Shown here piece by piece: positions 54,502 to 56,060 of a stretch of DNA of 64,000 nucleotides. A model generated the notes under the pieces. It did not search any database and was not told the DNA's origin. It was given only the letters and a program-made list of their open reading frames with translations. How positions within the stretch are numbered: position 1 is the stretch's first letter; every line of letters starts with the position of its first letter. Made by a program: the position numbers and the translations under genes. The DNA comes from Escherichia coli (GTDB taxonomy: Bacteria; Pseudomonadota; Gammaproteobacteria; Enterobacterales; Enterobacteriaceae), in NCBI RefSeq assembly GCF_013122565.1, contig NZ_CP053258.1; one strand, given 5' to 3'.

Positions 54502-55506
54502 TCAGTCAGGAAGTTGATGAAGAATTTGCCCCAGTCGATCTTGCAGCGAACCCGAAACCGAAAGATAAGGAATTTTCCTGCGCGATAATTCCTGTTCGTA
54601 CCACGCCTGCTGCCGCGCGCGAAAAGCCTCTCCTTGCCGGGTGCCATCCTGCACAAAGGGGAATTCCGCGCCGCAAAGCACTACCAGAGAGTATTGCCGC
54701 TCCGCCAGCTGGTGAAGTTCTTGCGGAGCATGACCATATTGATCAAGGGTATAGAACAAGGTCGTGAGTGGCGATGTGTCACATATAAGATAGCGATTAG
54801 CTTCTGCTTGTTGTTCCCGACTTACCTGTTCGCGGGCGATATGCAACAAATCGTCTGCGGTTAAAACGCCGTTTTTCTCTTCCCAATAGTCGCGACCAAA
54901 TTCAGCGACATACGCCGTATCGAGCACGTCCGCCAGCGCTTTTGAAAGTGTGCTCTTACCAGTTGATTCGCCACCAAGCAGACAGATACGGCGAACGAAA
55001 CTGCGATAAACGTCGTGCGCCAGCATGTAGCGATAGCGGTGAACGTCGGAACGAATCAGCGTTCCCGAAGGAGATTTATCGCCAAGTGGACGCTGTAATC
55101 GAACGTGTTCAACAGGTTGGGCAAAACGCTGTGCCAACACTTTAGCAAAACCGTCACCATAATCTTCTGCGGTAAATACAGCGTGTGGGCGGCAACGTAA
55201 TACGTGCAGGCACAGCGTCGCTACATAATGACGATGGATGTCCGCATCGGCATCGTTATGCGGTATGGCTGGTAAGTTATAACGCGCGATCAGTTCGGTA
55301 GTCAGTACCAGAACCGTCGCTCGTGGGAAGCGCACTTGCAGCCACATCAGGCGCTTTTCAGGTTCACAGTCAGGCATTTCCGGCACGGAATAACTGATGA
55401 TGAACAGTTCTTCACATTGTGCCAGCGCGGTATTAATCAACCGTTCATGACCACAATGCAAAGGCGCGAATTTGCCAACCACCAGTCCCGTTACGAAAGG
55501 CTTCAT
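54502..55506 (-). CDS. NadR-like bifunctional NMN adenylyltransferase / ribosylnicotinamide kinase lacking the N-terminal HTH domain
   Basis: Nucleotidyltransferase HxGH motif (GKFAPLHCGHE) at the N-terminus; P-loop GGESTGKST in the C-terminal kinase domain; 334 aa. Confidence 0.65.
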   Translation of the reverse strand: MKPFVTGLVVGKFAPLHCGHERLINTALAQCEELFIISYSVPEMPDCEPEKRLMWLQVRFPRATVLVLTTELIARYNLPAIPHNDADADIHRHYVATLCLHVLRCRPHAVFTAEDYGDGFAKVLAQRFAQPVEHVRLQRPLGDKSPSGTLIRSDVHRYRYMLAHDVYRSFVRRICLLGGESTGKSTLSKALADVLDTAYVAEFGRDYWEEKNGVLTADDLLHIAREQVSREQQAEANRYLICDTSPLTTLFYTLDQYGHAPQELHQLAERQYSLVVLCGAEFPFVQDGTRQGEAFRARQQAWYEQELSRRKIPYLSVSGSLQDRLGQILHQLPD

Positions 55507-56060
55507 GATGCCCGCAGCTCCTTGCGCCACTGATACAAACCATGCCAGGCGTTAATCCAGAACAAGAAATATAAACCGGCGGTCAGGTTTAAACCGCGCG
55601 TCATATACAGAGGCACCGCCAGGGTATTCACCGCTAACCAGACGTACCAGTTTTCGATCCTTCTTCCCATCAACATGAATTGCGCCAGAACGCTGAAGGT
55701 CAAAATCAACGAATCCAGCCAGGGGGCCCAGGCATTGGTAAAGGTGTGGAGCAAAAAGCCGTAGCCGCCTGCCACGACAACGGCACAGAGTAACAAGAGG
55801 AAAAAGTGACTGGCTTGCGTCCGACGCACTGGCAAGACATCGCCACCCTGACCTTTCAGCCAGTGGATCCAACCGGTGATGCTGGTCGCGATGAAGAATA
55901 ACTGGAGCGTGACATCGGCATAGAGTTGCACGGACCAAAAAACCCAGCCATAAAGCATGCTACCAATTATGCCGATCCACCACGTATGCACATTGTTTCT
56001 GGCAGCCAGCCAGACGGAAACCGCGTATGCCAGACACGCGGCGATTTCTGAATAAGACAT
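55503..56060 (-). CDS. PnuC-family nicotinamide riboside transporter-like membrane protein
   Basis: 185 aa, tryptophan-rich polytopic protein; ATGA overlap with the downstream NadR-like gene; RBS GGGAGGGA. Confidence 0.55.
   Translation of the reverse strand: MSYSEIAACLAYAVSVWLAARNNVHTWWIGIIGSMLYGWVFWSVQLYADVTLQLFFIATSITGWIHWLKGQGGDVLPVRRTQASHFFLLLLCAVVVAGGYGFLLHTFTNAWAPWLDSLILTFSVLAQFMLMGRRIENWYVWLAVNTLAVPLYMTRGLNLTAGLYFLFWINAWHGLYQWRKELRAS

Follow-up and report, generated by a model that had tools for sequence, protein, structure and literature searches.

What would a second pair of pnuC- and nadR-like genes do in Escherichia coli, and was it brought into the genome or inherited? The question is raised by two genes lying between alr and tyrB in a stretch of 64,000 nucleotides from contig NZ_CP053258.1 (assembly GCF_013122565.1), referred to here as the window. 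An initial annotation, made from the sequence, had read them as a module for the salvage of nicotinamide riboside (NR) that may have been acquired as a second pathway. We consider the pair, with good but not complete confidence, to be a functional two-gene extension of the alr operon that imports and traps a pyridine nucleoside, most likely NR, and that is ancestral at alr-tyrB, was lost in most E. coli, and had its alleles recombined within Escherichia. No publication on this E. coli alr-tyrB pair was found in the literature searched.

The two genes and their predicted products

Both genes are encoded on the minus strand. The pnuC-like gene (55503..56060) is an open reading frame (ORF) of 185 amino acids (aa), predicted to encode a facilitator of the Pnu family with a core of seven transmembrane (TM) helices and without the extra N-terminal helix. 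The nadR-like gene (54502..55506) is an ORF of 334 aa, read from the ATG at 55506, and is predicted to encode a two-domain enzyme that lacks a helix-turn-helix (HTH). The ATG of the nadR-like gene overlaps the TGA stop of the pnuC-like gene in the four bases ATGA (55503..55506, minus strand), which were seen directly in the DNA at bases 55506..55503, and judging from the sequence this overlap is a translational coupling of the two genes. The same 4-bp ATGA overlap recurs in loci of Enterobacter, Kosakonia, Atlantibacter, Chania, and Scandinavium. Upstream, a spacer of 22 bp (56061..56082, minus strand) separates the pair from alr (56083-57162 of the window) and carries the ribosome-binding site GGGAGGG; the corresponding spacer measures 12–22 bp across Enterobacter, Kosakonia, and B2 E. 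coli. Downstream, 81 bp (54421..54501, minus strand) lie between the stop of the enzyme gene and the GTG start of tyrB and represent the retained tyrB upstream region. In the window, dnaB and alr are separated by 52 bp. Since both ORFs are long and conserved and give very strong profile matches, a chance origin is far off. The initial annotation had placed the two genes at exactly these positions and had described an ATGA-coupled pair of a PnuC-family permease and a NadR-type enzyme that keeps the HxGH motif and the kinase P-loop and misses a DNA-binding domain at its N terminus; each element of that description was recovered in the searches that follow.

The 185-aa protein matched the Pfam family NMN_transporter (PF04973) over the full length of the model (positions 1-175 of 175, E = 1.4e-48) and scored 77.8 bits against TIGR01528 (PnuC), above the curated cutoff of 42.45. 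Its identity to K-12 PnuC was 22%, and it could be aligned to the structure of Neisseria mucosa PnuC, 4QTN (E = 2.6e-8). In this alignment, the segment WYVWLAVN (aa 138-145; 55626..55649, minus strand), located by regular expression and by translation of the DNA, pairs with WALWIVVN of 4QTN and represents the Pnu-family motif WxxW(x)3D/N of TM6. This motif binds the ligand and ends in N in PnuC(Nm) and in D in the thiamine transporter PnuT (PMC5749112). The motif of the 185-aa protein ends in N, like that of the NR transporter PnuC(Nm) and unlike that of PnuT. Two Trp residues have been proposed as the cytoplasmic gate of Pnu transporters (PMC5749112), and both are kept here, as the Trp of GWIHWLKG and the Trp of GLYQWRKE align with those of GFAMWRKH and GYINWTKL in 4QTN. 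A crude Kyte-Doolittle scan returned five hydrophobic segments (3-22, 28-44, 46-62, 80-108, and 110-133), and the C-terminal stretches ~136-152 and ~158-177 fell under its threshold; the 7-TM core, including the two C-terminal helices, is predicted from the full-length profile match and not from hydropathy.

The 334-aa enzyme carries the name "AAA family ATPase" in RefSeq because it does not reach the cutoff of TIGR01526 (nadR_NMN_Atrans), a model that it matches over its full length (E = 2e-44). Its match to NF005988 (trifunctional NadR) was also below cutoff, covers the enzymatic part, and begins at profile position 66 of 411. AAA_28 matched residues 174-325 (E = 6e-32), and the match to the Pfam model CTP_transf_like was marginal (E = 0.063). 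Among solved structures, the only significant sequence matches were NadR-type or nicotinamide mononucleotide (NMN) adenylyltransferase (NMNAT) proteins, namely 9x6f, 8x7f, 1lw7, and 6gye. An AlphaFold2 model built on 16 homologues had a mean predicted local distance difference test (pLDDT) score of 90.5, and the kinase lid (residues 286-289) was its only stretch of low pLDDT. When this model was used in a Foldseek search of the PDB, the top eight hits were all NadR (8x7f, 1lw7, 6gzo, 6gyf, and 6gye), with template modelling scores of ~0.62-0.73; the ranks after NadR were filled by single-domain archaeal NMNATs, which match the N-terminal half, and by nucleoside-monophosphate kinases. The order of the two domains, an N-terminal Rossmann nucleotidyltransferase followed by a C-terminal P-loop kinase, was confirmed by the model and by full-length alignments to 1lw7, 8x7f, 6gye, and 9x6f. 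This corrects the RefSeq annotation, as the "AAA family ATPase" is clearly a two-domain enzyme of the NadR type.

The NMNAT-like Rossmann domain (approximately aa 1-170; 54997..55506, minus strand) contains GKFAPLHCGH, whose HCGH motif was read directly in the DNA (55447..55458, minus strand), and SGTLIR (aa 147-152). The P-loop kinase domain of the ribosylnicotinamide kinase (RNK) type (approximately aa 171-334; 54505..54996, minus strand), to which the AAA_28 match belongs, contains the Walker A motif GGESTGKS (54952..54975, minus strand), also read directly in the DNA, a Walker B-like CDTSPLTT, and the lid FVQDGTR. In Salmonella NadR, residues K72, H80, and R212 are required for ATP/NAD binding (PMC12421817), and all three have counterparts in the GKFAPLHCGH and SGTLIR of the window's enzyme. 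Throughout the clade formed by the enzyme and its relatives, the residues K12, H17, G19, H20, S147, G148, and R152 are unchanged. The motifs HxGH, SGTxxR, Walker A, DTxPLTT, and QDGTR were invariant in 16 diverse clade members, and of the 72 NadR-type proteins taken from loci, 65 or more retained each of them. The enzyme aligns with residues 67-357 of K-12 NadR; neither pairwise nor multiple alignment gave any match to K-12 NadR residues 1-66, where a helix-turn-helix was looked for. Because it has no HTH DNA-binding domain, the enzyme is expected to have no transcriptional role and to act as a catalyst only.

Uptake of NR coupled to kinase trapping is the most likely function of the pair, which would follow the standard logic of Pnu transporters and NadR (trapping mechanism in PMC5749112). 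The 7-TM PnuC-type facilitator would let NR diffuse inward, the kinase domain of the coupled NadR-type enzyme would phosphorylate it to NMN and thereby trap it metabolically, and the N-terminal nucleotidyltransferase domain would adenylylate NMN to NAD. The substrate and both enzyme activities are predictions from homology and gene linkage.

Expression of the pair probably occurs by read-through from alr, with which the two genes would be co-transcribed. The 22-bp alr-pnuC spacer is too short to hold a promoter, and a promoter scan gave no promoter-like site in it; the sole promoter-like match lay inside alr (56273..56246), and this single site in the region compares with a mean of 2.3 in shuffled sequence. 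No terminator-like site was found in the 81-bp spacer before tyrB. An Rfam scan of positions 52000-58800 with E values up to 1 returned no match, hence no NAD riboswitch or pnuC motif, and no NadR operator (TGTTTA-N6-TAAACA, allowing up to three mismatches) was present in 53445-58005. Neither protein matched a defence system in PADLOC.

Distribution and origin of the pair

The pair was present in 868 of 5426 complete E. coli genomes (16%), mostly B2 strains, so the tyrB-alr interval is variable and its occupancy is not universal in the species. Approximately 785 genomes carry a B2-type allele that is ~91% identical to that of the window (among them ST131, ATCC 25922, E2348/69, and a Nissle derivative), and 82 further genomes carry alleles 95-99% identical to it, the best at 98.2%. 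Canonical nadR was found in 5424 of the 5426 genomes, which makes the nadR-like gene a second NadR-family gene. In K-12 MG1655, alr is directly followed by tyrB with only a 252-bp spacer in between, and the absence of the pair from the K-12 gene order, which the initial annotation had assumed, was thereby seen in the genome itself. Alignment to an empty-site locus (L002) delimits a presence/absence segment of 1579 bp (54500..56078), in place of which the K-12 type has ~170 bp with a repetitive extragenic palindromic (REP) element. Homology with the empty site is regained 4 bp past the alr stop on one side and 78 bp upstream of tyrB on the other; of the 81-bp tyrB upstream spacer, 78 bp match the K-12-type empty site exactly. 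When the K-12-type spacer was searched by sensitive blastn, no remnant of the module was found, and the only matches were the shared 78-bp stretch upstream of tyrB and chance matches of 9-13 nucleotides. About one-sixth of complete E. coli genomes, mostly B2 (ST131, Nissle-derived, ATCC 25922, and E2348/69), would thus hold a second, regulator-free vitamin B3 salvage pair that K-12 lacks. Such a pair could affect the use of NAD precursors in the host, strains for NMN or NR bioproduction, and auxotrophy phenotypes.

This patchy occurrence can be explained by gain or by loss. A horizontal acquisition between alr and tyrB in this lineage, as proposed in the initial annotation, would agree with the low share of carriers among complete E. 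coli genomes (16%) and the lack of the pair in K-12, with the existence of two allele families that differ more than tyrB does, and with the fact that Salmonella, Klebsiella, and Citrobacter orthologues are not named in the best 120 protein matches. Against it stands the arrangement of the locus in related genera. The order dnaB-alr-pnuC-nadR-like-tyrB(-aphA) was also found in Enterobacter (at least four species-level loci), Kosakonia (at least five), Superficieibacter (at least two), Scandinavium, and Atlantibacter, so that the alr-tyrB slot holds the pair, with equal insertion point and gene order, in six genera of Enterobacteriaceae, Escherichia included. Protein identity to the window's pair is lower in phylogenetically more distant relatives, and declines in parallel with that of the neighbouring Alr and TyrB. 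The GC content of the pair (51-53%) is like that of its flanks, and no integrase, transposase, tRNA, or direct repeats were found at the module borders. The identity of phage homologues of the pair does not exceed 33%, and neither phages nor plasmids hold a close copy. Between genera, the synonymous divergence (dS) of the pair is saturated, as is that of the flanks; it was discarded as a transfer test, since it shows only that no recent transfer took place. A plasmid origin was likewise considered and rejected, as the two "plasmid" matches at ~89% identity come from E. coli, in records (27 kb and 834 kb) that resemble chromosomal pieces. Because the pair is syntenic in six genera, has host-like GC content, lacks mobility features, and has no close phage or plasmid copies, it is best read as ancestral at alr-tyrB, with loss in the majority of E. 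coli lineages (K-12 among them) and retention mainly in B2-type strains; acquisition in this lineage we hold to be unlikely. Of the "acquired second pathway" in the initial annotation, the second NadR-family gene stands and the acquisition does not. Apart from its enzyme, the locus presents an ordinary case of differential gene loss at a conserved position.

Movement of alleles between Escherichia lineages is a separate matter from the arrival of the genes. The two module allele families in E. coli are ~10% apart, more than the flanking tyrB: between B2 and window alleles, dS of the module was 0.30-0.34, compared with 0.09 for tyrB. Within E. coli, alr alleles also form two deeply split families (88.5% identity at the nucleotide level, dS 0.48), which do not track the module allele, and E2348/69 combines the B2 module with a K-12-type Alr protein. 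The B2 nadR-like gene (L008, 3003-4007) shares 97.1% identity with its counterpart in Escherichia sp. MOD1-EC7003 (L011, 105-1109), whose tyrB is only ~93% identical to that of E. coli, which suggests that the region was introgressed between Escherichia species. This likeness to a separate species, at 97% for the allele and 93% for tyrB, might be counted in favour of acquisition, in that alleles do move, by homologous recombination. As the divergences of module, alr, and tyrB disagree, we attribute the shifting of alleles between Escherichia lineages to homologous recombination and not to a mobile element. The window itself combines a non-B2 flank with the module, because it has a yjbS-type spacer where B2-type carriers have a 2-oxoglutarate dehydrogenase E1-like gene directly past tyrB (L008, 1-1546; L009, 1-1546; L093, 1-46). 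This E1-like gene beside tyrB presumably belongs to the alpha-ketoglutarate utilisation island of uropathogenic strains.

Loss on this scale raises the possibility that what is left of the pair is a decaying remnant without current function in E. coli. Its absence from 84% of genomes, the occurrence of several truncated protein clusters (214-289 aa) among E. coli sequences, and the lack of an evident dedicated promoter or regulator would be expected of such a remnant. Yet neither reading frame is broken in the window or in any of the complete genomes inspected, the catalytic motifs are all invariant, and conservation extends to the ATGA coupling and the ribosome-binding site. The ratio of nonsynonymous to synonymous divergence (dN/dS) within E. 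coli, at 0.05-0.06 for the pnuC-like and 0.15-0.29 for the nadR-like gene, is well under 1, and by this measure both genes are under purifying selection. Given the low dN/dS and the intact frames, we regard decay as very improbable and retain a functional pair as the preferred explanation.

Outside Enterobacteriaceae, the pair occurs in other contexts, in Chania, the Pseudomonas mendocina group, Andreprevotia, Oxalobacteraceae, Xanthomonadaceae, and Verrucomicrobia. The search of genome contigs behind this survey returned at least 80 species-level loci and missed at least the E. coli representative, and absence in Salmonella, Klebsiella, or Citrobacter is not to be read from it. Among the matches listed, 71 of 80 species-level loci (~89%), from Proteobacteria to Verrucomicrobia, had a co-oriented pnuC gene immediately upstream. 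The nadR-like gene of Pseudoduganella flava (L007/L073) has no adjoining pnuC and is preceded by a gene for an AMP-binding (acyl-adenylate-forming) enzyme and followed by a DZR-domain gene; further Oxalobacteraceae loci of Duganella, Rugamonas, and Pseudoduganella lurida (L042, L043, L047, L052, and L059) also lack an adjoining pnuC. These pnuC-less loci hint at another role of the clade in some taxa.

A few features of the surroundings were also recorded. The aphA gene (51385-52098 of the window) lies two genes downstream of the module, and the order alr-pnuC-nadR-like-tyrB-aphA is kept in Enterobacter, Kosakonia, Superficieibacter, and Scandinavium. In work by Grose et al. (2005) on Salmonella, the periplasmic acid phosphatase AphA reportedly turns NMN into NR for uptake by PnuC; the proximity of aphA may reflect a functional linkage or may be a coincidence. 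The spacer between aphA and tyrB (window positions 52099-53226) is AT-rich (~31% GC) and contains an intact ORF of 180 aa (52463..53005, plus strand) for which no Pfam, PHROG, or PADLOC match was found. This region was found in 4378 of 5426 E. coli genomes, with the ORF frameshifted in the closest genome, and the K-12 annotation shows nothing more there than yjbS, a remnant of 67 aa. Some B2-type genomes have a longer interval between dnaB and alr, filled by an annotated 732-bp gene for a "hypothetical protein" (L008, 5619-6350; L009, 5619-6350) that lies on the other strand and runs into the beginning of alr; this gene is absent in the window.

Substrate specificity of the enzyme

How firmly can NR be named as the substrate? 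Several observations weigh against the function proposed above. The enzyme scored 152.1 bits against TIGR01526, below the equivalog cutoff of 341.15, and is only 28% identical to E. coli K-12 NadR. What a second system would add is not obvious in E. coli, which possesses pnuC and nadR in any case. Nor is control by NAD status apparent, as no NadR box, riboswitch, or promoter of its own was found. The most specific point concerns a loop in the transferase half. All four solved NadR proteins have (Y/M)P(N/H)GW..W, and in the profile and MAFFT alignments with 9x6f, 8x7f, 1lw7, 6gye, and K-12 NadR the window's enzyme has PHNDADADIHRHY in its place (aa 82-94; 55225..55263, minus strand). The entire clade is without (Y/M)P(N/H)GW..W; in its stead come an acidic loop and then a conserved (H/Q)-R-x-(F/Y). 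P[NH]GW was present in only one of the 72 NadR-type proteins taken from loci, and that one was K-12 NadR itself. By analogy, the lost loop probably lines the nicotinamide pocket. Archaeal NMNAT has a Trp where the corresponding helix begins, and this residue stacks against the nicotinamide ring. With this loop missing from the clade, we can only infer the specificity of the enzyme for NMN. A comparably distant homologue, the NadR homologue of Mycobacterium tuberculosis (NadRh), was inactive in vitro: the refolded protein, which has no PnuC partner, showed neither kinase nor adenylyltransferase activity (PMC3944813). The missing Trp loop, the sub-cutoff TIGR01526 score, and the inactivity of NadRh (PMC3944813) all bear on the pyridine specificity of the enzyme and even on its putative adenylyltransferase activity.

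These observations could be accommodated if the pair were functional with another specificity. The transferase half might act on another pyridine nucleotide (e.g., in a route from nicotinic acid riboside to nicotinic acid mononucleotide, NaMN, and nicotinic acid adenine dinucleotide, NaAD), it might only bind nucleotides in a regulatory capacity, or the pair might work by kinase trapping alone. Such a reading would account for the acidic-loop replacement, which runs clade-wide and is itself conserved, for the TIGR01526 score short of the equivalog level, and for the marginal CTP_transf_like match (E = 0.063), and it has a parallel in the M. tuberculosis homologue, inactive in both assays (PMC3944813). 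Non-redundancy would also better explain the coexistence with canonical pnuC and nadR. The conserved parts of both proteins point the other way: the transferase half retains its ATP-binding motifs without variation, and the transporter has an N-type WxxWxxxN, as in the NR transporter. Thiamine Pnu transporters are linked to other kinases, whereas the partner of the transporter here is of the NadR type. Moreover, in many clade genomes the pair appears to supply the sole NadR-type gene, as judged from the loci and not genome-wide. A different specificity therefore seems to us rather improbable, if less so than an acquired origin, and uptake and trapping of NR remains the function we favour.

The loop can also be given a wider meaning. 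The clade might be a distinct and widespread NadR subfamily (Proteobacteria, Verrucomicrobia, and others) with a rebuilt pyridine pocket; the pair would then salvage another pyridine nucleoside (e.g., nicotinic acid riboside) or contribute the kinase trapping alone. We consider this doubtful; if it were true, B2-type E. coli would gain a salvage route that does not duplicate pnuC/nadR. The clade-wide loss of the Trp loop defines a large NadR subfamily, and this uncharacterised group is enriched among B2 E. coli. No publication on any member of this NadR-like clade, or on its missing Trp loop, was found in the literature searched.

Comparison with known systems

As a kind of system, the pair is already known. 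An HTH has been reported only in enterobacterial NadR, and pnuC-nadR operons with an HTH-less NadR have been described in other bacteria as a route of NR salvage (PMC2330246); the HTH-less state is consequently the norm of the NadR family. The nearest point of reference within the same organism is E. coli NadR (b4390), with Salmonella NadR (8X7F), and PnuC (b0751), which share with the window's pair the superfamily, the order of NMNAT followed by RNK, and the presumed pathway. Identity to the enterobacterial NadR and PnuC is 28% and 22%, respectively. The trifunctional enterobacterial NadR has an HTH, which in Salmonella comprises residues 1-57 (PMC12421817), whereas the window's enzyme is without one and would have no repressor function. 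The arrangement differs as well, as nadR and pnuC of K-12 lie far apart, and the two genes in the window are adjacent and, by their overlap, translationally coupled, with no NadR operator nearby.

The best sequence match among solved structures was 9X6F/9X6H, a "nicotinamide-nucleotide adenylyltransferase" of 357 aa that is likewise HTH-less and two-domain (residues 5-292, E = 2.9e-36 with the clade profile). It retains the YPNGW loop and has TRGH, in contrast to the window's enzyme with HCGH and no YPNGW; neither a publication nor a source organism for 9X6F was found in the literature searched. Phage auxiliary genes include members of the same families, NadR-like PHROG 3462 and PnuC-like PHROG 1880, which gave full-length matches (E = 4.9e-47 and 9.5e-30); these homologues are at most 33% identical, and the locus in the window has no phage context. 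NadRh of M. tuberculosis is a distant HTH-less NadR homologue, ~28% identical to Haemophilus influenzae NadR (PMC3944813). It lacks a PnuC partner and was inactive in vitro (PMC3944813), whereas the window's clade is linked to pnuC in ~89% of the loci listed.

The closest counterparts in design are the PnuC-NadR systems of H. influenzae (1LW7) and Lactococcus lactis (6GYE/6GYF/6GZO), in which, as in the window, a gene for a Pnu facilitator stands beside one for an enzyme with NMNAT and RNK domains, following the logic of metabolic trapping. NadR of L. lactis has no HTH and performs both reactions (PMC7221760), so that it, like the window's enzyme, needs no DNA-binding domain. The NadR proteins of both species share the fold and the HxGH, SxTxxR, Walker A/B, and lid motifs with the window's enzyme. 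The differences are that the latter is only 20-25% identical to them in Foldseek alignments and is without (Y/M)P(N/H)GW..W, that its transporter is shorter (185 aa), and that the window's pair is a second copy beside canonical pnuC and nadR.

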